A stretch of DNA of 63,911 nucleotides, the filler included, from Dimargaris cristalligena (taxonomy: Eukaryota): assembly GCA_003614675.1 (NCBI GenBank). It is 5 parts of 5 records of this genome, joined end to end, with 100 filler letters (N's around TTAATTAATTAA, not from the genome) between each part and the next. Parts side by side here need not be neighbours in the genome. Positions count along the whole stretch, not along the records: positions 1 to 12,815 come from ML003025.1; 4 more parts are not named here. The stretch is one strand, 5' to 3'. The notes under the pieces are model-generated. The model saw nothing but the letters and a program-made list of their open reading frames with translations. It searched no databases and was not told the DNA's origin. Position numbers and translations under genes: made by a program. Below, piece after piece: positions 1 to 12,815 of this stretch. Each line of letters starts with the position of its first letter. The stretch's first letter is position 1.

Positions 1-57
1 TAGTATTTGCCTCATCAAATGGATTTTTCGTTATACAGCCTTGTTGAACTACTCCCA
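1..57 (-). mobile_element. MITE family A, partial copy cut by window start
   Basis: Reverse complement matches the first half of the copy at 425-550 (GTTCAA..AGGCTGTATAACGAAAAATCCATTTGATGAGGCAAATA); ends CCCA followed by TA. Confidence 0.8.
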
Positions 58-389
58 TATCGTTTATGGTTTATTAATAAAGTAAGACGAGATGGGGACT
101 GGAATATTTGCGAGCATCGTTAACGGGTATTTTCGTTTTGGTTTTTATTAGTCGACCATTCAAGTAATGTGTGGGCTATTCAGGAATATACGGTGCCGGA
201 TAGAGATGTGCTTGGGACGTAAGGATGGTACAGGTCAGGGGATAGCTATGGCAATTCCATTCTTTTTAAATTCATATTAATAGCGACCCTAAACGGGACT
301 AAAAGTTGGCGTGCGAATTGGAAAGCGAAAATGGACTACTCGATCCTCCCAGCCAAGGATTTCCAGGGGATTGGCGAGACCGGCTGACC

Positions 390-424
<35 letters not shown>

Positions 425-427
<3 letters not shown>

Positions 428-547
428 GAAAGGTTCAACCGAGCTGTATAACAAAAAATCCGTTGGATGAAGCAAATATTGCTGGTTAAAATTAAGTATC
501 CCATATACTAATTATTTAAAACCTTATACGCCTGGGCCGAATTTCAC

Positions 548-550
<3 letters not shown>
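425..550 (+). mobile_element. MITE family A (~126 bp, imperfect ~27-bp TIRs, TA-flanked), inside a (TA)n microsatellite
   Basis: Left end TGGGAAAGGTTCAACCGAGCTGTATAA; reverse complement of right end TGGGTGAAATTCGGCCCAGGCGTATAA. (TA)n on both sides (~395-424, ~551-582). Four further copies in the window. Confidence 0.85.
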
Positions 551-586
<36 letters not shown>

Positions 587-3176
587 TGTGGTTATTATAG
601 ATTTTGGCTATTATTTACTTTCCTTGTATATGTATTGGAAGGTGGGGTGGCTTTTCATTCAGCGGGTGGAATTGATTAATGGACTTGACAAAGATCTTGT
701 GATCAGAGTGGGTGTGGATGTGGTTCTTGGTGCTCCTTATATATATTACATTTACCGCTATTCCCAAGACATCGTGGTAGGAGAGATATTAGGTGATTTG
801 GGAAACAAGAAACACTCGACTCATCATCGTTGAAAACCACGAAACCCTTAAATTAGCCACCATTATAGCACGTAGATTAAGGGGTTCGTGTGAGTGAGTG
901 ATATAGAGGCCATGGGGGGAGGAGGAGATTGGTTCCAAGTAGAATGTCCGCAGCGCTGAATAACTAGGAAGGAGGGGCAGGGAAAGAAATAAATGTGGGT
1001 GTGTGCAATAGGTGGATATATAAAAGTATAGGGCAGGTAAAATCAGGTGACGCCAGTAAGATTACCAACCCTCTCTACTTCGACATCCCTCCACTTAAAC
1101 CAGTCCAGTTATATAGGCCCCCAACTATTCGTGCGGGTAATAATGGGGCAGCAATATTATTGGGTCTTTAATTTCCACCAATGGATGCTAGCAGAAACGC
1201 TCCGATTGGTAGCCTCATGGAGAAACCCTCTCCCCGCACACACACACACACACACGTTTAATATGCCCCTGGACCCCTTTTCTTATTTCTCCTCCTCCGC
1301 GCTTCCATTCTGTTGCCACTAAAATAAATTGATTATAATATTAGCAGCCAGTTCTATCGAGGGGGGAGGGTGTACCATAGCAGAAGAGCTGCGGACCCTA
1401 GGGAGAGAGAGACTTGATGACTCTCGGACTTGTGTGCAACCTCCCCTTCTCTCTCTCTTTTTCTCCCTCTCTTGGAAGACACGGTGTTCACATCATAATG
1501 ATCGGGTGATTTGACAACAGCAGGGCGATTAAGAAGAGGGAGGTGGTGGTGGTGCCACATACCGGTTATTGGGATAGGTGGGCGAGGCCAAAGAAAAGAA
1601 CAGACCAGAGAAGCGATCTTCCCTCCCAGATTGGGAATGATTAATCCAGGTTGCTGGGTATAATTAAGGGGAAACTTGGTTGTTGGGGGATGTCTTGGCG
1701 AACAACCTGTCGAATTTCTGCTAAATTTGCCACCTCCCTATAGGCCAAAAATCGGACGAGATTTTGCTTGCAGGGATTTGGACCTTTCCTCCTGTCTGTT
1801 GTATATACTAACTATACTATCCACTTTGGCAGAGTAGAGGAGTAGTGGAAGAAGCCCTCTCTAGTATATATACGCTTGGGTGGGTTGTATTAATTAACCC
1901 CCGAATGTGTGTGTCACATGTACCCATTTTGCCTTAATATTGATCTCTTCAGGTAAGAAGAAAGCAAGGCAGTGTGGCAGTGGGTGGACATACCACCACT
2001 ACAATAACCAGCGTAGGCTTAGTAGTTGTTATCCTTCCCCCTCCTCCGCTGCGAAAGGGCGTCGTTGGTGACGCCGGCCCTGTTGTTCCAGGCTCTACCG
2101 ACCGTCGGCAGTGGGTTCGTTGTGGCTAGCGCCGCGCCTTCCCTCGCCACAGCCCGACGATACTTCTGTTCTTCGGTTGGGCTTGTTGACTATTAATTCG
2201 CTCTTCTCTTCTGTTCTGTTCTTTCAACCTCTGCTATTTCCTGGGTACTGCTGTGGAGTTACTCCACCATTCCTTTACCGACAGCCACTGGTGCATTCCT
2301 TGTTCCTATTACTATTACTCTTATTAGTCCCTCCAAGTGGTTCAGTTAGTAGTTACGTAGCCCTTTCTTTCCATTCTCTCACCCTCTGTTCGCTATTCGC
2401 TTAGGGGAGAAGAGCGGTTCTTCTTCTGTAGCTATTCTCTGGTACATCGTCTTGAGTAATATACTTCTACTACTCCAATTCTTCTTGAACTATACGACGA
2501 CCTTCTTCCAGCCCGTTTCGTCTGATCTTGGCTCTCACCCCCTTCCTTCCTTCTACTGAGTATATGCCCCCCTCCCTTTTGGTCTCTCTCTTTCTCCCTC
2601 TCTTCTTTTGTTGTTGTGACCTACCACACCACACCACCACTGCTGCTGCTGTCTGTATGCGCCCTTATCCTTCCGGTTCTCTCTCTTTCTCTTAACTACT
2701 TTCCCATTCGTCTGCGCCTGTGGCTACGCTTTCTCAATATACTATATCTGTTTAATTCCTTTTGCATTCCTTTATAACTAACTCTCTCCACCCCGGCTAG
2801 TCCTCTCTGCGCTCGCTCTACTAGGCCGCCGTTGTATCCCTTAACCCAACTCTAAAAGAATGGCCTGATATTTCTCTACATCCCCCGGAATCTCTCCCCC
2901 CTCTTTATTCCCCTTCGCTTTCTTCCCTCCCGCCCTTTATCTGGCTTTCTCGTGCAGTGGTGTACCTTCCGCACCGCCCAAAACCCTCTCCTCTAACCCT
3001 CTTCTTACCCTGGCACGAGTTACGCCAACTTCTTCTTTTTTATTTAGCCCCTGAACCTGCGCCGTTTTTATTGCACGCCCTAGCTTATCCTTTTCGACGC
3101 CGTCTGTGCATTTCCCGACTCTACCACTTCCCCCCCCCATATATATATATATATATATATACATATAACTCATACC

Positions 3177-4628
3177 ATGGGCAACCAAACTTCCAAGCGC
3201 TCCTCCCGAGCCCGCACCGGTTCCGAGGGTCGCCTCTCCACCGATATAGCCCAGTTTCACAATACCCGCCAAGCCTCCTCCTCCGACCAGCTACCGTACA
3301 ACGCCGCCGAGGAGAACACCGCTCCCCGGAACTCCACTGGTCCTGACCCCTCGGCTTCCCACTTGGCCTCCGTGGCTGGTTCCGAGGATGGCATGACCGA
3401 CGAAACTTCCGTGGTGGCCGGTTCCACCCAGGGTGTCAATGGAGCCGGCTCCCGGCTCTCCGTACCCAACGCCACCGGCCCTATGGCACCCGTGGAACGT
3501 AAGACCGAGCCCATTCTGATCCGGAACGGCGATGATAACCGGCGCCTCAGTACCATCTCCCTCACCAACTACATCTCCACATCATCGGGCTCCGTCACCG
3601 TTGTGAACCATCCCGAAAAGAACAAGGAATTCAGTGTCGATGAAATGATCCAACGGCTCATCGAGGCCGGCTTTTCGGGTAAAGTCACCAAGACCCCTTG
3701 CCTCAAGAACTCCGAAATCACCGCCATCTGCCACGCCGCCCGGGAGATCTTCCTGTCGCAGCCTTCCTTCCTCGAACTCTCCGCCCCCATCCGGATCGTA
3801 GGTGACGTACACGGCCAGTACCCTGACCTGCTCCGCCTATTCAACCAGTGCGGGTTCCCCCCTCACAGCAACTACCTGTTCCTAGGCGACTACGTCGACC
3901 GCGGCAAACAGTCCCTCGAAACCATCCTTCTGCTCATGTGCTACAAGATCAAATACCCCGAAAATTTCTTTTTATTGCGGGGCAACCACGAGTGCGCCAA
4001 CGTGACCCGGGTCTACGGCTTCTACGACGAGTGTAAACGGCGCTGCAATGTGAAAACATGGAAGACCTTTGTCAATGTGTTCAATACCCTACCCATCGCC
4101 GCTGTCGTGGCCTCCAAGATCTTTTGCGTCCACGGAGGTTTGTCACCGAGTCTCAATACCATGGACGATATCCGCAACATCCAGCGGCCGACGGATGTAC
4201 CCGACTACGGTCTGCTGAATGATCTGCTGTGGAGCGATCCGTCCGAAAATACCCTGGAGTGGGAGGACAACGAACGCGGCGTCTCCTTCTGTTTCGGCAA
4301 GTCCATCGTCAACGGATTCCTTAACAAGCACGACCTGGACCTGGTCTGCCGCGCCCATATGGTAGTCGAAGACGGCTACGAGTTCTTCAATGGCCGCACC
4401 CTCGTCACGGTGTTTTCGGCACCCAACTACTGCGGGGAGTTTGATAATGCCGCGGCCATTATGAATGTCAATGAGGATCTCGTATGTAACTTTGATATCC
4501 TACGGCCGGCGTACGATACACCGCTGTCCCCAACCTTTAACCAACTGCAGCCCCGGCTACTCCAACAGGTTGCCGGCCGGAGGAACCGGCCGTCCCCACC
4601 GATGTTCCAGGAACCTCAGTCGGTATAG
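3177..4628 (+). CDS. PPZ1: PPZ-type serine/threonine protein phosphatase (PP1-related), intronless, 483 aa
   Basis: PPP motifs GDVHG, GDYVDRG, RGNHE, HGG, WSDP, RAH, SAPNY. N-terminal MGNQTSK myristoylation motif and a long Ser-rich disordered N-terminus distinguish Ppz from Glc7. Confidence 0.93.
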
Positions 4629-5966
4629 TATATGCCCATGTGTGTACAAATCCATATATATATACACCTATATAGTTTTATATAGTAGTTTTCTTATTGG
4701 AAGAATAAGAGAGAGAGTTGGCCCTTCTTAAACCCCATAATGAGTTGGTCCTTGGTTAGGTAGGGGTGGCCTAGTGGAATGTCCGATTTTACCTTACGGT
4801 TACCATCGTCTTCCTTCTACCATTCCTTCCCATTGTGGGGAAAGGGTTAAAGGGGGGGAGACATATTGCCAATGGGTAGCGTTGAATATGCCTGGTGGGG
4901 TGGATTAAGAGGCAGAGAGCGTGGACCCACTAATCTCACCTATTTTGGCCCGACTCTATTCATCATATGATGATACTCTTTCTATTCTATCTTATTATAT
5001 TCTCCACAGGGTTTGGTCCCGATTCATTATGGCCCATGGCTATAGTTCCAAAGGCCACCCACCCAAGCGCAGTGGGAGAGAGGGGTCACACACTATCCAT
5101 TCAGCCAGCTCTCAACGTACTTCTCTTCCTTTCGTGTGTGTGTCCGCTCCCTTCTTATCTCTATACACACCTTGGTGCACCCAATCTTAATCCAATATTT
5201 ACTACTTCCTTGAGGGTTTTCTCGGCCTGCCAAAGCACCAAATCATCCTATACTGCTTTTATTTACGTATTTCACTTCTTCTGTAGCATATTCTCTTCAA
5301 TCTAAGGCGAAGCCTTTGTACCATGTTCTCACCCTCTCACATTCCCTTTTTCGGATCTCTTATTTGATTGTGATCTTATATCCATCATCGACATCGACAT
5401 CGTCATTACTTTTATTTTTATTTTTGCTATTACCACTATTCATTTCTACGCAAAATGGATACGGACCCCCACCCACTGATGGTTCCTGGTGTATACCCGA
5501 GGGGATGCTATTCCTCTTATATTTTCCTAGAGTCGACCACTTGTGTCGTTTCATTGCTGTGCTGTGGACTATTATCACCAGTACTACTACTACTATGCCT
5601 TACTCAACAACACTTATCCACTTGCGCAAGATTCTTTTATACTATTATTATCATTTACTTTTGAAACCCATTGGGCATTTCCTCTCCATCCCATTCATCA
5701 CCCTGCTTTATCGTCCTATTATCAATCCCAATCTCTTCCGTTTACATTCGCTGTATTAATGTATTACCATACTTCCACTGTCTGTTACCGTCTGGATTTT
5801 CTTCTTCTTCTTCATTTTTATTTTATTTTTCGTTGGTTGGTTCTACGTATCTTTTCTCTATTTCTATGTGTGTGTGTTTTTGCTCCATTCATAAATAAAT
5901 TGACGTGCAATTTTGCGAAGGATAGTTTATACCATATTCCCATGTGTTTGGTTCATTTAAAATATA

Positions 5967-6091
5967 TGGGTGAAATTCGGCCCAGCTGTATAAGGTTTTA
6001 AATGATAATGTATGGGAGATTTATTTTTAACCAGTAATATTTGCTTCATCCAATGGATTTTTCGCTATACAGCTCGGTTGAACCTCTCCCA
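5967..6091 (-). mobile_element. MITE family A, full copy with TA target-site duplication
   Basis: TA|TGGGTGAAATTCGGCCCAGCTGTATAAG...TATACAGCTCGGTTGAACCTCTCCCA|TA; reverse-complement homologue of 425-550. Confidence 0.85.
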
Positions 6092-6795
6092 TATTGATGC
6101 GATTATCGAAACAGCTATGATTATATTTTTTGCCAATCTAGTATATTTTTGAATCCCCGGGACTCTATGAGGGGGATGAATTGCTGCCTTAGCCTGTCTT
6201 TTCCAACCCATCGTGTGATTTCTTTGTTCCACTACTGTTTACGGCCCTTCCACATCTAATTACTAATGGGAAACCCTCTGTATAGAGAAGTGAGTTATAA
6301 TTAATAATACTAGCTGCCTATTTGTAACAGCTAAATGGGATATTATATTGGGGAACATCCAGATAAAATCTCCCATATATGTATTGTGTGGCTGGCGGGG
6401 ATAATCTGTGAAGGGAAAAATGGAATCACCAATGTTGGGAGGGGTTTCATGGTTTACTTGCTTCCAATGGACGGGAAATACGGAAGAGGCGGTGGAGGTA
6501 TATTATATAGGATATAGGAGGATAATAATACTGTGTGTTCTCTTCGCCTGGGTCAAGTTTGTCTTTCGTCCCTTAAAGTATTTCTTTTTTGGTATCTCAT
6601 CACCCTTTCTTACTACTCCGTGTTTCCCATTTCCTATATGCATGCATAGAGGGGTTTTCTCCTTTTAACTATTTTCACGACCTTAAACTATCTCGCTCTC
6701 GCTTTATTTGCTCTTTCCACTTCAGTTGGTCCAATTTCATTTTCCTTATTGTCCATTAGTCGCACCCTTTCTTTTCTATCCAGTTTGAATCCGCC

Positions 6796-9093
6796 ATGGC
6801 TACTAAGCGCATCAAGGTAGGCCTTGCTTTAAGCTATTCCAAGTGTTTTATGTATTTTCCTCTAATGAAAGAGAAGGAGAGTACCTCAGGGAAATCGCGT
6901 ATTGTATATCATTTTAGGGAGCATTCTCTTTGTTTCGATGCGCAGTGTTTATATGCATCATAGCCTCCCTCATGCCTGGTGCGTAGCTGACTTTTTCATC
7001 GCTCCGTACCCCTGTTAATTCACACTGTCCCTTTCCCTCTTCTATCCTACTTTACTACTCGCCAATAGGTCAACAATATATGCCGAGTGGCTACTGAAGC
7101 GCTGCTCAAAAATGTATTCGGGCTGTTGGGCGATATTGAATCGGTGACTCTCAAACCTAGGTAATTTACGCGTCTATATGGTTTCTCTCTTCTTGGGAGG
7201 GTGGTGTTTCTTACCACTTGCTTGTAGAGGGTTAGTGGGTTTTTCTGATTTTGCTTTTAAACCTGGTTTTTTATTCACGGGTCTGTCAAACGGCTTATAA
7301 ATCGATTTCGCCCTGGGCATATATACTCCTACCTACCTACTAGGGTGAATCGGCGGTGTGTATACCCATAGTTAGTGTCGGTGATATTTATACGCTCTTC
7401 GTAATTGGTGCTGCCTTAACCGTCAATGTCCCCTGTTCAATTTTCTGCATGTGTCTGGCCAATGTACTTTTTTCCATATTTTGTATATATGCACCTATGC
7501 CTATCTATCTATCTATCCATCTGGCTGAATTGCCTCTATAATCACGGGGGTTATCTGACGTGCATTTTCCCTTTATTGCCCCCATGTATTGCGGCTGTAC
7601 CCGTCTTTCAATACACGCCTGATCCATACACTATTGACTAAATTCCCATGTCTCTAGCATCGAGAATTGGACAGAACTCAGACGCAATATTGTGTAACAA
7701 GCGCCTAACTGTCGGTGTGACAAGCCATTGCAAGTGCGTTTGGCATGGCTATCCTAGATAGGACTCGCGGTTTATCAATTTATTCAGGGTTTCGCTCCGA
7801 TACCTATAATACTGGTTCGTTAATTTCTTAAGCTTCCCCCATCGAAATTTCGACTAACTCTTTTACTATATCTTGCTATACTATGCTGTAATCATTTCCC
7901 TCCGTTCCCTCAACCAATATATTCCTCGAAATAGCACCATTCGTCCCGATAGCTTCGAGAGTCTAATCACTTTCAAAGAGGCGCAGCCGGCCGTCGCTGC
8001 GCTCCACCTCTCAGGTACGGAACTGGGCGACCAGGTTATGATCGTGACCGCTGATGTTGCCCCCGGCGCAGCTAATGGCCATTCCCCGGCCTTTATGCTA
8101 GCGGCTGGTGGTAGTGGTGCTGCTGCAGGCGGACTTGGTTCGATGGATCCGGTTCGAGCCGAAGAGATCTCCCGTACTGTCTACGTAGGTAATATCGCTT
8201 CCACGGCCCCCGAGGCCGACTTACGCCAATTCTTCGAGGTCTGCGGCCCTGTTGCTTATGTGCGCATGGCAGGCGACAGCTCCCAACCCACTCGGTTCGC
8301 TTTCATCGAATTCGAAGCTTACGCTGGGGCACAGGCGGCCTTGGCCCTCACCGGGGCCCAGTTTGCTAACCGGCCCTTAAAGGTGAACCATTCAAAAAAC
8401 GCCATCATCAAACCACCCAAGCCCACAGCCGCCACGCTAGGAGGCGGAGATGCGGTGATCCCAACCCCGGGCGGGGTTGGAACGAGTGTCCAGGACGCTT
8501 TGCAGAAGATTCGAGAGGCCCAAATGCGGATTGCCCAGAAGTACGCGGGTGCGGCGGGAGTTTCCACGGCCTATAATCACCATAACTCTATCCCGGCGAA
8601 CGGCAGCAACCCTGGTTCGGATTCCCTTAATGGGGGAGTGGGCGGAAAAGGTGCGGGTGAAGGAGTAGGGCTGGGGAGTGGTGGCCTACCGCCATCCGGT
8701 ATCTCTCCCCTTGCGGCGCAATCCCGGTCCCGGTCCCGGTCCCAATCTTTCTCGCGTCGTTCAATCCACCGTGGCTCTCGTAGCCAGGAACGCAGCAGCA
8801 GTCGCCATAGTCGTTACCCTGACCGGGACCGTGAACGCGAAAGGGAGCGCGATCGTGACCGGAGCTCTCGCCGGCGCTCTCACCGCCGTGACCGATCCCG
8901 CGACCGGGATTATGTCCGGGAACGTGATGGTGAATACCGGCGCTCACGTCGGCATAGTCGCAGCCGTAGCCCTTCCCCATCACGGCGATCCAGTGGAGGA
9001 CGGTCGAGCCGTCACCGTGATTCGGGTCGTAAACGGGAACGCAGTCCAAGCCAAAGTTTCGGGCGGGACCGTTCTCGGCCTAGTCGTCATTAG
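6796..9093 (+). CDS. SR splicing factor, two RRMs plus C-terminal RS domain (SRSF11/SREK1/Rsd1-like); exons 6796-6816, 7069-7160, 7935-9093
   Basis: Phase-consistent GT-AG splicing gives MATKRIK|VNNICRVATEALLKNVFGLLGDIESVTLKPS|TIRPDSFESLITF...AALHLSGTELGD (RRM1). Then EEISRTVYVGNI...GDSSQPTRFAFIEF...LKVNHSKNAIIKP (SREK1-type RRM2) and a long RS/RD tail. Confidence 0.88.
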
Positions 9094-9882
9094 TTTGGCG
9101 GGATGGAAAGATGGATGATAATGAGAAAAAGAAAATCATAATACATAATTTCAGTTGTTTCCATCGTTAGGTATTCTTGAAATAAATTTATTATCCCGGC
9201 TTTATCCTTTTGGTTGTTATGGCCGGAACTTCACTTTATCCGTTTATATAGTATTCCATAGATAGCACATACTTGAATACAGGCGGGATGTTTGTTTTTA
9301 ATTGGGAAAAGTCCAGACAAAATATCATTTCGATATTTGAAATGCAAATGGAGGTTTGTTCTGCTCACGGGGCTGTAGATGGCCAAGTAAAAACTTAATG
9401 TAGGCCATGGCCATGGCTATATAATATAATATTGGGTCCTCTAGGGGGGAGAATCAGTACATGTAACCTACATGTTATAGCTATTATTATTCAAGACCTG
9501 ACTAAATGAGCTGCCGGATCGGATTTGAACTACCTCGTAGATGCACAACCAAATAACTTTTTTTCTACCTTATTTCTCTGATATAGACCTGTGGTGTACT
9601 TTTGGAGCTCTGGGTTAACTAGGACAAGGCAGAGTGCCTCGTTTCATTCCCCTAGTATATTCCCTTTGCTTCACTCCCCCCCCACCTGCCATTTACAATT
9701 CACTGGTTAAGTAAGTGGATATAAATATATTAGAAGTGTTAGCCCATAGGGATATCGAGATTGCAATGGAGGGCTATGCTTTGTCTTGCTATACAGAGAT
9801 CCGCCAGTTGGGTGATCAGCTAGAAGTTGGTGCATGGTCTGGTACAAAGACTGGATGGATAATCAATATATATATATATATA

Positions 9883-10098
9883 TAGTGACTCTTAAAAGTG
9901 TATCAATGTTTTACACTTTTAAATTTAAATAGTAATTACTCAACACCTATGGGAGGTATTAAAAAATAAATACCACCAGGAGAAAGCCCTATATCCCTAG
10001 TATACATGTGTAAAACTATAATTTTATTGTTTCATTTAATGGCAAGACACAAGGATTTAAAAAAGATTGATGCATTGATACACTTTTTGGAGTTGCTG
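9883..10098. mobile_element. Decayed Tc1/mariner-type MITE (~216 bp) with ~27-bp TIRs
   Basis: Left TAGTGACTCTTAAAAGTGTATCAATGT vs reverse complement of right CAGCAACTCCAAAAAGTGTATCAATGC. CAG..AAAAGT is a typical Tc1-like terminus; the left end abuts a (TA)n run. Confidence 0.7.
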
Positions 10099-10160
10099 CA
10101 AAAAAAGTGTTCTTTCTTCTCTGGCCTTAATTACTAATAAAACTTTTTTTTTTAGTTTAC

Positions 10161-10746
10161 TGTCACCTGGGTTAATTACTCTTAGTTCATCAAGAGTCCC
10201 AAGGATAGGCTTCTAGTAATAGGTGGGGCTTAGGCTTAGCTAAATAGGTTACTAGCATTAGGTACAGAGTATAGCACTAACTAATATAGGCTAAGTAGTA
10301 GGGATATGTAAGAGATGTGCAGTTAGTACACTTACTAGTCAGAATAGGGGGAGTGAGTGTATATAGAGTTTATTGGGGCTAACTAGGGGGTAAGAATAAG
10401 CTGAGGAACCTAACCAGTCCTAATGGGGCCTAGTTATATATATACAGGGACAGCTCCAAGGGGAGGTCCTAAGGGGAGGGTACTACTTAGACTATAAAAT
10501 ATATAAATGGGCCAACCAGATGATTGTGGGTATCCAGAACACTCTGATGGTAACTGGAAGAGTCTATGGATTAATACTGGGAGTGATTAGTGTAAAGAGG
10601 CAGAGTCTGGAAGGGGAAGGGTTATATGATAAGGGATGATCCCATAGTACTGGGGGTGCCTATGGGAAGGCTAATATGATACCATAAGGCCTAATATGTT
10701 CAGATACCTAAGCCAGCTGGATTAAGGTGGATTAGATGGTCCAACA
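10161..10746 (-). mobile_element. LTR-like relic (probable solo or degenerate LTR; right boundary uncertain)
   Basis: 10161-10365 is an inverted, diverged copy of 26079-26279, both ending at ...GGTGACA. Minus strand shows TATATAA then AATAAA before that end. Region lacks CpG. Confidence 0.6.
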
Positions 10747-11396
10747 GTAAGTAGTAACTGCCAAGATGTAGCAGTTAAGGTAGTAAAATACTCACAGTTT
10801 AATTCAGGGGCAGCTGGGAAGAGGTATATAGGTACTATTATAATAGAGCAGAGTAGTCATTTGACTACTACAAGGTATTATATGGATAGTAGTCATTCTT
10901 TCAATCAATTATTAGTGGGTATCTGGCTTTAACAGTTTTAAAAAGTTCAATACCTATTAAGCCATGTTTATGCACATCCAGCCAAAATGGTAAGACCTTG
11001 GGCCAGTGGTATCTGAGCACTAGGTCCAGTAAACAAAGGGTTAGTAGTTCAGGGATGCATTGCTATGGCATTCTGGACATGTCAGATATTCTTTAGATTA
11101 CTGAAACCTTAAATTATGCCTTGAGTGTAAATTTCTAATATAATACTATACCAATAATCCATTGAATACTACCAGCAGGCCGCCATATTCAATATTAAGG
11201 GAAATCTCAGGCTAGTTTGAGCAAAAATTAGATTTATTGGGGAATAGTAATGTCAACTTAAAAAAACTGGTGACTGCACAAGTGAGTGTCTGGAGATGAA
11301 GAGATGGTGAATGTAGGCAGCATTTGATAGCAATGAATACCATACTCGTCAAATCGCTGTTTGTATTGGTAAGGCTAGGATTCAGTACGACGAGGG

Positions 11397-11741
11397 CTAT
11401 TTTTTTATATGAAGCGCGCCTGTAAGCTTATTTTTAGCACTGGAAAGGGATTTGACAGCCCTATTTTTAGCATTGGAAAGAGCATTGCCAGTTTTTTTAA
11501 TAGCGCTGGAGACAGACTCCTTAGTTCTTTGTATTTTGGTTTTGGGAGCGGGGGCGGGGGGTGTTGGCTTATACTTAAAGGGTTGAGATATTGGCTTAGG
11601 GAGTGGGGTTGTCGGCTTATTGTAGTGTCCGGGATCTAAATCAAAACGCTCCGTAAACCTTGATTTAGGGGCTGTTTTCCCAGTTTCGCCAGCAGCGGCA
11701 TTAGCGAACAGCACAGCAATTAGTAAAAATATAAGTTTCAT
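11397..11741 (-). CDS. Small secreted basic orphan protein (114 aa)
   Basis: ATG at 11741, signal peptide MKLIFLLIAVLFANAAAG, Pro/Lys-rich middle, Lys-rich helical C-terminus; (TA)n/TATA-like run upstream near 11950. Confidence 0.7.
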   Translation of the reverse strand: MKLIFLLIAVLFANAAAGETGKTAPKSRFTERFDLDPGHYNKPTTPLPKPISQPFKYKPTPPAPAPKTKIQRTKESVSSAIKKTGNALSNAKNRAVKSLSSAKNKLTGALHIKK

Positions 11742-12815
11742 TATGACTAGCAATGGGGAGATGGGTTGGCGAAAAAGTGGTGGCGGGTTGCCGAAAGAGG
11801 TCGCAACGGGATTGGCGAACTAATATGTCCAGTAATGGTGCTTATGGAGGTACAGGTGGGGAGTTTCCAGATGATGAATGTGAAGAAAATGTAATATCGG
11901 TCAGTGAAATAATGGCGCGGAAATACAGTGGCCACCGTAGACCTTACATATATATATATTGTATACTCGATGGATCTACAATATCGAATGCCGGCGACAG
12001 TGATAAACCCAGTATAACTGCTTTCCCGTTTTAATAGGCCAGTTAACCCATGCCTAGCGGCATGGGGCTAGCAATCCCGCTGCTTCTGTGTGTGTTGCCG
12101 CTGTTCCGCCAGTACAAATAATACTTAGGGGATTGGTTCATCTCTGCGGAAATATGAAACCCCGATTTAAAAAAGGGCTTTATAGATTGAAAATATATTT
12201 CCCGTCGATTAATATATTTATTTCTCACTCGAATGCAAATGCGGCTGTGTTGGGATTTGCCCCATGTTAAAGTGTAAGTTGGAGAACTACCCCAGCCTAT
12301 TCGTTGGAAAGAGGTCCGACTTTCTCGCATTTAATGCGAGCGCTATGCACTTTAGCATTTACTCCATTGTTCAAGTACGTGTTAAAGACAAGTGGGACAT
12401 TAAGACAAAGAATAGAAAGACAGTAGATCCTCATACAATTAATGGAAGATGGTACGGGAAGAAGATACAGCCTGAATGTTACGACGATTACACATCATTT
12501 CTTCCGCTTGACCATCGTAAATAGTTCTCAAGGATAGACAAATGGCCAATTCCTGGATAATCACAACCCAACTACTTTTATACTCAAGTTATCATGTCAC
12601 AATATAAACCAAAAGCATATAACCGCCATAATATATGGCTTATTGAACAAATCAACACATACTTAGTCGAGGCTGAGAATGTCCGAATGTGAAGAATTTC
12701 CCCCAATATTCAACATACCTCGGCTTCATTGACCAGTATTTACTAAAATAAGCGACAGTCGTTGAATTCATTGCACAACCCACCACCTAGGCTGAAAGCT
12801 GAGCAGTACACCTTG

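Follow-up and report, generated by a model that had tools for sequence, protein, structure and literature searches.

The SREK1/SRSF11-like gene of Dimargaris cristalligena

A 63,911-nt stretch of DNA from Dimargaris cristalligena (assembly GCA_003614675.1), referred to here as the window, contains in its part from record ML003025.1 (positions 1–12,815) a gene for a serine/arginine-rich (SR) splicing factor of the SREK1/SRSF11 type, whose second intron may harbour a stop-containing (poison) cassette exon. Three coding exons on the plus strand (6796–6816, 7069–7160 and 7935–9093) give by conceptual splicing a protein of 423 aa, which is identical to the annotated hypothetical protein P0001 of D. 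cristalligena (two assemblies); this annotated form omits the candidate segment at 7658–7733. Exon 1 (MATKRIK) matches P0001 and is found by the ab initio gene model, exon 2 encodes the first half of RRM1 as judged by translation and alignment, and exon 3 encodes the remainder of RRM1, RRM2 and an arginine/serine-rich (RS) domain with no further intron (translation, Pfam and alignment). Intron 1 (6817–7068; 252 nt, phase 0), as delimited by the splice models, has the branch point AGCTGAC 79 nt before its acceptor, and its position is common to four of the loci from relatives described below (L009, L036, L045 and L055).

Two N-terminal RRMs followed by an RS-rich tail, the arrangement of the SREK1/SRSF11 (SRp54) subfamily, are found in this protein, where RRM2 is a Pfam RRM_1 match, RRM1 is recognized by alignment with named SREK1 proteins and the RS tail is contained in P0001. 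A PDB search with the protein returned generic RRM matches only. Homologs were found in Zoopagomycota, Mucoromycota, chytrids, holozoans and amoebozoans. The locus is the top match in the D. cristalligena genome for the sponge SREK1-like protein P0093 (E = 4.7e-26; next 1.1e-8), and in a quick-search tree of 26 proteins, which includes no human sequence, 13 fungal rows are sister to 6 holozoan SREK1 rows (Shimodaira-Hasegawa-like approximate likelihood ratio test, SH-aLRT, 96). On the strength of the sponge match, the tree and the shared phase-2 intron position inside RRM1, the gene is treated as the single SREK1/SRSF11 ortholog of D. cristalligena; together with the RRM/RS architecture, these results bear out the SREK1/SRSF11-like identity proposed in a first-pass annotation of the window.

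Candidate poison exon in intron 2

Splice sites were scored with an ab initio gene model trained on 600 kb of the fungus's own genome plus the window (a 664-kb sample), which recovers the annotated gene exactly. The reference set comprises 89 well-flanked predicted introns, unverified ab initio predictions from which intron 2 itself was excluded. These have a median length of 171 nt, GTAAGT-dominated donors, the branch consensus YTRAY and branch points a median of 58 nt from the acceptor, where the AG-free stretch has a median of 74 nt and reaches 157 nt at the longest. Their longest member measures 591 nt, but this tail is not a clean estimate, as the model prior disfavours long introns; in a looser set, 8 of 221 introns are at least 700 nt long, several of them probably gene fusions. 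By the standard of the same sample, D. cristalligena has long predicted introns (median about 170 nt) whose branch points are distant. The introns of most fungi are shorter, with nearer branch points.

Intron 2 (7161–7934, plus strand; 774 nt, phase 2) lies inside RRM1. Its length, about three times that of any other intron modelled in the first-pass annotation, is confirmed (intron 1 has 252 nt), but long introns also occur in other RNA-binding-protein genes of the genome (627, 639 and 495 nt). AG dinucleotides are found at 7374 and then not until 7656, leaving an AG-free zone of 280 nt (7376–7655) that includes a short TATC repeat (about 7500–7522) and four branch candidates of the YTRAY type, namely CCTTAAC (7414–7420), ATCTGAC (7553–7559, the best scoring), GCCTGAT (7617–7623) and TATTGAC (7632–7638). 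The branch point first proposed, TGACTAAA (7635–7642), departs from the consensus learned for this genome and is probably the wrong one; it was dropped in favour of these four sites. The zone runs into the candidate acceptor TAG (7655–7657), whose score of 5.01 exceeds that of the gene's own intron-2 acceptor (4.24) and those of 59 of the 89 predicted acceptors.

Behind this acceptor lies the candidate poison exon, a purine-rich segment of 76 nt (7658–7733) with a negative coding score in all three frames (−5.9 to −14.8), followed by the weak candidate donor GTGCGT (7734–7739; score 2.86, above only 11 of the 89 predicted donors); an alternative donor, GTTCGT at 7815, is weaker still (2.41). 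An internal exon would thus be delimited by four predicted branch sites, an acceptor and a weak donor. Joined to exon 2, the segment reads ...LKPS-IENWTELRRNIV-stop, where the in-frame TAA (7695–7697, codon 51) truncates the protein inside RRM1, and 76 nt is not a multiple of three, so that both a premature stop and a frameshift result. For the AG-free zone, the acceptor, the segment, the donor and the stop, the coordinates given in the first-pass annotation are right, although the length of the AG-free run is not unique in the window (288 nt at 5631–5918). The constitutive 3' end of the intron (7851–7934) consists of the branch point GACTAAC (A at 7857), a pyrimidine tract and the acceptor used by the annotated form.

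A second internal 3' splice-site unit, overlooked in the first-pass annotation, is located upstream (7236–7343), with a branch-like TTCTGAT (7243–7249), 106 nt without AG, a pyrimidine tract and a TAG (7341–7343) scoring 5.95; reading on past 7343 meets an in-frame TAG at 7369–7371, and the donors downstream are weak (2.3–3.1). In the alignment of fungal homologs, D. verticillata among them, no insertion interrupts RRM1 at the exon 2/3 junction, and the segment 7658–7733 is therefore ruled out as a missed constitutive exon. Intron 2 is single copy in the genome, and a repeat or mobile element was rejected on that ground.

We give about even credence to the proposal that intron 2 hosts a cassette poison exon at 7658–7733 and would act as an unproductive splicing switch. 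That the intron is an unproductive one in some form is more secure than the exact cassette, since retention, use of the 7657 acceptor alone and most uses of 7343 would also lead to early stops. By analogy with animals, such a switch is probably of the self-limiting kind known for SR genes.

The host intron in relatives

A scan of metagenomes gave 63 loci, mostly transcripts, fragments and other RRM genes and none from Dimargaritales. A phase-2 intron at this place inside RRM1 is present in 7 measured distinct genomic loci. It measures 75 nt in L009, a Rhizophagus-like fungus and the one fungal relative represented by DNA; 119, 115 and 932 nt in the animal-like L023, L026 and L043; and 103, 127 and 52 nt in L036, L045 and L055, which come from other eukaryotes. 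L063 has a short intron at the same position, as judged by eye. At least two long genomic contigs, L011 and L021, are without it. The latter two appear to be animal-like SREK1 genes that are intronless across both RRMs (about 7001–7760), on contigs of 59 kb and 78 kb. As the intron is common to a glomeromycete-like fungus, animals and other eukaryotes, its position is ancient on this comparison. No relative was found among 40 candidate stretches of prokaryote genome contigs.

Among fungal proteins, that of D. verticillata (P0160; 40% identical) has the whole RRM1 without insertion, and the model of Dispira simplex (P0150) starts inside exon 3. Three other fungal models (P0009, P0029 and P0051) break at the intron-2 position, which fits an intron there and is not evidence of a poison exon.

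Evidence for and against the cassette exon

Several results weigh against the cassette. An acceptor and donor as good as those observed occur in 968 of 3000 dinucleotide shuffles and in 1116 of 3000 mosaics of predicted introns, and 384 comparable decoys are present in 659,308 non-coding nt, or 0.38 per 660 nt. AG-free runs of at least 200 nt number 21 (6 of them at least 270 nt) in 1.33 Mb counted on both strands, mostly outside genes in pyrimidine-rich gene flanks, so that runs of this length also arise elsewhere without serving splicing, and a 76-nt window as purine-rich as the segment arises somewhere in 1393 of 10,000 shuffles. The splice models rest on unverified ab initio introns, and among the 89 predicted introns no C-containing donor is GTGCGT. 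The stop TAA lies 36 nt before the last junction (the 7734 donor), less than the 50 nt expected for junction-dependent decay. Six of the seven measured relatives, including the only fungus, have introns of 52–127 nt with no room for a cassette, and intron 2 shows no DNA similarity to the 63 distant loci (best E 0.2). In fungi and protists, about 37 retained introns are counted per cassette exon (PMC2397502), although according to the same source the cassette share increases with the share of introns longer than 200 nt, and the introns of D. cristalligena are long for a fungus.

Other genes of this genome add to these points. U1-70K (L189:1497–2401, G000:C1364) appears intronless, the two LUC7 introns read are ordinary, and the 639-nt first intron of a Pub1/TIA1-like gene (L103, minus strand, about 4785–4147; G000:C153) has no comparable internal acceptor at the score threshold, so splicing-factor genes of this genome do not generally carry long composite introns. 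Unproductive splicing of U1-70K occurs in animals and plants, and the intronless copy here cannot use it. By eye, the Pub1-like intron shows a GCCTAAT branch, a CAG, 4 nt and a GTGAGA donor, below the score threshold.

While splice-site scores alone are at chance level, their combination with the AG-free zone is rare. A site pair with an AG-free run of at least 200 nt occurs in 5 of 3000 sequences in each control (shuffles and mosaics) and two such acceptors together in 10 of 3000 shuffles, figures that overstate the case somewhat, as the thresholds were taken from the observation itself. Of the 384 non-coding decoys, 6 have an AG-free run of at least 100 nt and none one of at least 150 nt. 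The first-pass annotation took a long AG-free zone as the mark of a regulated acceptor, which stands only for the extreme length, because 50–100 nt is normal for constitutive acceptors of this fungus (median 74 and maximum 157 nt among the 89). The purine fraction is 0.57 in 7658–7733 versus 0.36 and 0.38 on its two sides, and the purine-richest 76-nt windows of intron 2 start at 7659–7663 and thus coincide with the segment; at that fixed place, its purine value is reached in 27 of 10,000 shuffles. This composition island is a sign independent of splice-site chance, and the AG-free zone and the island together exceed what splice-site chance gives.

That intron 2 is an ordinary, unusually long constitutive intron, whose pyrimidine-rich sequence resembles splice sites by chance, is unlikely. 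The decoy density and the 21 AG-free runs given above are consistent with such an intron, as are the TATC repeat making up part of the zone, the existence of other long introns and the conservation not found among the distant loci compared. It fits poorly with the rarity of the joint pattern and of two such acceptors in the controls, and with the way in which the composition island lines up with the splice sites. In addition, where such units occur in two "long" predicted introns, those of MSH2-like and sugar-transporter-like genes, they look like missed real exons.

The same sites could serve regulated intron retention or an alternative 3' splice site, with 7343 and 7657 as decoys or with 7657 used without a later donor, an explanation that is rather unlikely but to be taken seriously. 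Retention of intron 2 meets a stop at codon 39, and acceptor-only use of 7657 ends at the same TAA as the cassette. Both internal acceptors are strong and the nearby internal donors all weak, as retention would have it; retention is also dominant in fungal splice variation (PMC2397502), is the form of the fungal Srp2 event (PMC4379411) and affects the introns around the poison exons of human SRSF11 (PMC12052203; bioRxiv 10.1101/2023.11.21.568046). A purine island of about 76 nt ending near the GTGCGT donor would not be called for by retention, nor would a remainder (7734–7934, 201 nt) equipped with a donor, a branch and an acceptor of its own and as long as a typical intron of this genome.

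A coding alternative that alters RRM1 is very unlikely. It could be a first exon from ATG 7648, a 69-nt exon after GAG 7662–7664 or a 27-nt exon at 7344–7370, all three of which have open frames that join exon 3 in frame (the ATG 7648 frame being open through 7733); a TATATA is present at 7484, and two fish SREK1 proteins (P0067 and P0068) are annotated as starting inside an alternative exon. The negative coding score of 7658–7733 in every frame argues against this, as do the scarcity of GAG acceptors (2 of 86 predicted; this one scores 2.29) and the fact that none of the fungal proteins aligned, that of D. verticillata included, has an insertion.

The first-pass annotation had itself named an intronic snoRNA as an alternative to the exon. 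The length of the intron and the D-box-like words CTGA at 7245, 7525, 7555 and 7619 would suit an intron-hosted small non-coding RNA (snoRNA), but no Rfam match was found in the intron at E values up to 5, the intron is present once in the genome, and no C box appeared in the patterns tried, even with one mismatch. For a folded element, the folding z-scores are −0.44 for intron 2 and +0.35 for 7376–7760. A box C/D or H/ACA snoRNA or another structured RNA, rejected on Rfam, box motifs and folding, is thus extremely improbable.

Fate of the stop-containing message

Genes or domains of UPF1, UPF2, UPF3 and Mago were found in the genome, and a machinery for nonsense-mediated decay (NMD) is thus encoded. 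Junction-dependent NMD needs at least 50 nt between the stop and the last junction, while a route through long 3' untranslated regions (3'UTRs) is also described (PMC6173133). With the stop only 36 nt from the last junction, decay of the cassette message would need the long-3'UTR route; the 50-nt distance is reached only if the weaker 7815 donor is used. From the TAA to the end of the normal stop there are 1195 nt, which would suit long-3'UTR NMD. Re-initiation at Met 73, 92 or 108 may yield a protein without RRM1. The poison-exon interpretation of the first-pass annotation is partly supported, by the gene identity, the exon-like anatomy and the presence of the NMD genes; the 50-nt rule speaks against it, and its option of an ancestral origin is not supported.

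Comparison with known events

In the vertebrate SREK1 (SFRS12/SRrp86) locus L051, the intron after RRM1 contains a 124-nt exon (2594–2717) that carries an in-frame stop. Translated, the 3' end of this exon is LVHER*VSST, which corresponds to MVHDQYVSSTG at the N-terminus of the fish SREK1 proteins P0067 and P0068. One of these proteins derives from a 1,272-nt contig covering several exons, and both were probably read from exon-included transcripts. Like this exon, the candidate is a stop-containing internal exon of the same gene family, in a long intron and preceded by a long run without AG (117 nt in L051). The vertebrate exon, however, lies in a phase-1 intron after RRM1 (before G|KIPDE) and has many junctions after its stop, whereas the candidate lies in a phase-2 intron inside RRM1 with a single junction, 36 nt off, after its stop. 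Exon 3 of D. cristalligena has no intron at the vertebrate poison-exon position, and the different host intron rules out homology of the two exons.

The first-pass annotation left open whether the switch is ancestral or convergent and proposed a comparison of ortholog introns and of the position relative to animal poison exons. In this comparison the SREK1 position differs, and the 63 distant loci show no similarity. An ancestral event finds no support, as the intron is just 75 nt long in L009, the one fungus compared by DNA, and the vertebrate stop exon sits in an intron that D. cristalligena lacks. Since the candidate does not occupy the position of the vertebrate events, it would, if real, be a separate gain, convergent and lineage-specific. 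In a coral, the intron after RRM1 contains a candidate exon (L071:710–749) that is 40 nt long, would shift the frame and has a GTAAGT donor and a long pyrimidine tract, a hint that the animal SREK1 event may predate bilaterians.

Human SRSF11 (p54) has two ultraconserved, RNA-shown poison exons with retained flanking introns (PMC12052203; bioRxiv 10.1101/2023.11.21.568046); in the splice graph of the preprint these events begin at "exon 5". Intron 2 of the D. cristalligena gene, from the same family, likewise has two internal acceptors, but the human exons are ultraconserved and seen in RNA, while the candidate is a prediction from DNA. The human exon 5 presumably lies downstream of the RRM, and its intron is then not homologous to intron 2. 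The Caenorhabditis elegans gene rsp-7 is taken by us to be an SRp54-type ortholog. Its exon 3 is a validated non-triplet poison exon whose inclusion rises from 14% to 78% without NMD (PMC13247117). The candidate is also a non-triplet cassette; that of rsp-7 is mostly skipped and validated by RNA, in contrast to a cassette predicted from DNA. The human and worm exons give the candidate a precedent within its own family.

Unproductive splicing of SRSF5/Srp2 is common to animals and fungi and coupled to NMD, the fungal form being intron retention at a position homologous to that in animals, as shown by expressed sequence tags and an NMD mutant (Lareau and Brenner 2015, PMC4379411). In SRSF4/5/6, loss of the host intron was followed by the gain of a new event elsewhere (PMC4379411). 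The candidate, also in an SR-protein gene, would repeat this pattern of losing an intron and gaining an event elsewhere; it differs in belonging to another SR subfamily and in being a predicted cassette at a non-homologous position.

Among human exons with an AG-free zone of at least 150 nt, cassettes account for 32.5% versus 19.8%, although some of the long AG exclusion zones have nothing to do with splicing (Gooding et al. 2006, PMC1431707). The candidate resembles such distant-branch-point exons in its zone of more than 150 nt and in the branch candidate CCTTAAC near the 5' end of that zone; the statistics are human, however, and moderately distant branches are usual in D. cristalligena (median 58 nt). 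Literature searches brought up no work on SREK1/SRSF11 genes of fungi or on their splicing, with subscription papers and supplements outside their scope, so that absence from print is not established. Nothing further about the gene came from PMC11162794, PMC11357089, PMC12825443, PMC3173450 and PMC9767378.

Proposed mechanism

Intron 2 may be a composite, regulated intron. Most transcripts would be spliced from 7160 to 7935 to give the full protein with two RRMs and an RS domain, known as the annotated form only. In a minority, a branch inside the 280-nt zone would be used and scanning would reach the first AG at 7657, after which the weak 7734 donor would close the 76-nt cassette and leave introns of 497 and 201 nt. 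The resulting message would stop at codon 51 inside RRM1 and carry about 1.2 kb of new 3' untranslated sequence, which could expose it to long-3'UTR NMD or at least prevent a full protein from being made. By analogy, the gene's own or a sister SR protein might bind the purine-rich exon and strengthen the weak donor, closing a negative feedback loop, and the 7343 acceptor may lead to a second unproductive outcome. Such an event would have been gained in this lineage and not inherited from the animal one.

In its more specific form, which we hold tentatively and regard as possible rather than probable, the proposal is that D. cristalligena has independently evolved an animal-style cassette poison exon, or perhaps two in tandem (7343 and 7657), behind a very distant branch and in an intron other than that used by animals, the latter having been lost here. 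Unproductive splicing of SR genes is textbook knowledge for animals and plants. One fungal SR event is already known, that of SRSF5/Srp2 in Dikarya, by intron retention. If the proposal is true, the pattern of losing an intron and gaining a new poison event would reach a further SR subfamily and kingdom, exon skipping would operate in a fungus, where retention prevails, and, as the stop is too near the last junction, a natural test of the NMD route in these fungi would be at hand. Together with the composite Srp2 intron described below, it would mean exon-skipping feedback on several SR genes of an early-diverging zoopagomycete fungus, though still not a new kind of mechanism.

Other splicing-factor genes and flanking features

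In the SRSF4/5/6-like gene Srp2 of this genome (L121:2549–3175, G000:C1023), an intron of 627 nt lies at the SWK|DLKD junction. Inside it, a candidate poison exon is delimited by an ACCTAAC branch, by acceptors at about +282 to +327 and by a GTAATA donor at +440. We take the SWK|DLKD position to be the SRSF5 intron-5 site of the unproductive splicing shared by animals and fungi, and count this intron in favour of the cassette in the SREK1/SRSF11-like gene. A further SR gene (L112, minus strand, about 2991–2497; G000:C723) has a 495-nt intron inside its RRM. There, ACAG closes a long pyrimidine tract and G CAA TAG TAG comes next, giving immediate stops; the final acceptor is preceded by 199 nt without AG.

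Two SRSF7-like paralogs (RRM, zinc knuckle and RS domain) each need a 4-nt microexon, flanked by two introns, to keep the RRM frame, AGAG in one (L111, minus strand, about 3050–3047; G000:C689) and CGCG in the other (L104, minus strand, about 5520–5517; G000:C52), which gene finders would miss. Elsewhere in the window, the AG-free run at 5631–5918 and another at 2561–2798 (238 nt) flank a Ser/Thr phosphatase gene (3177–4628); the run at 2561–2798 ends in a well-scoring TAG and may belong to an intron of the 5' untranslated region.

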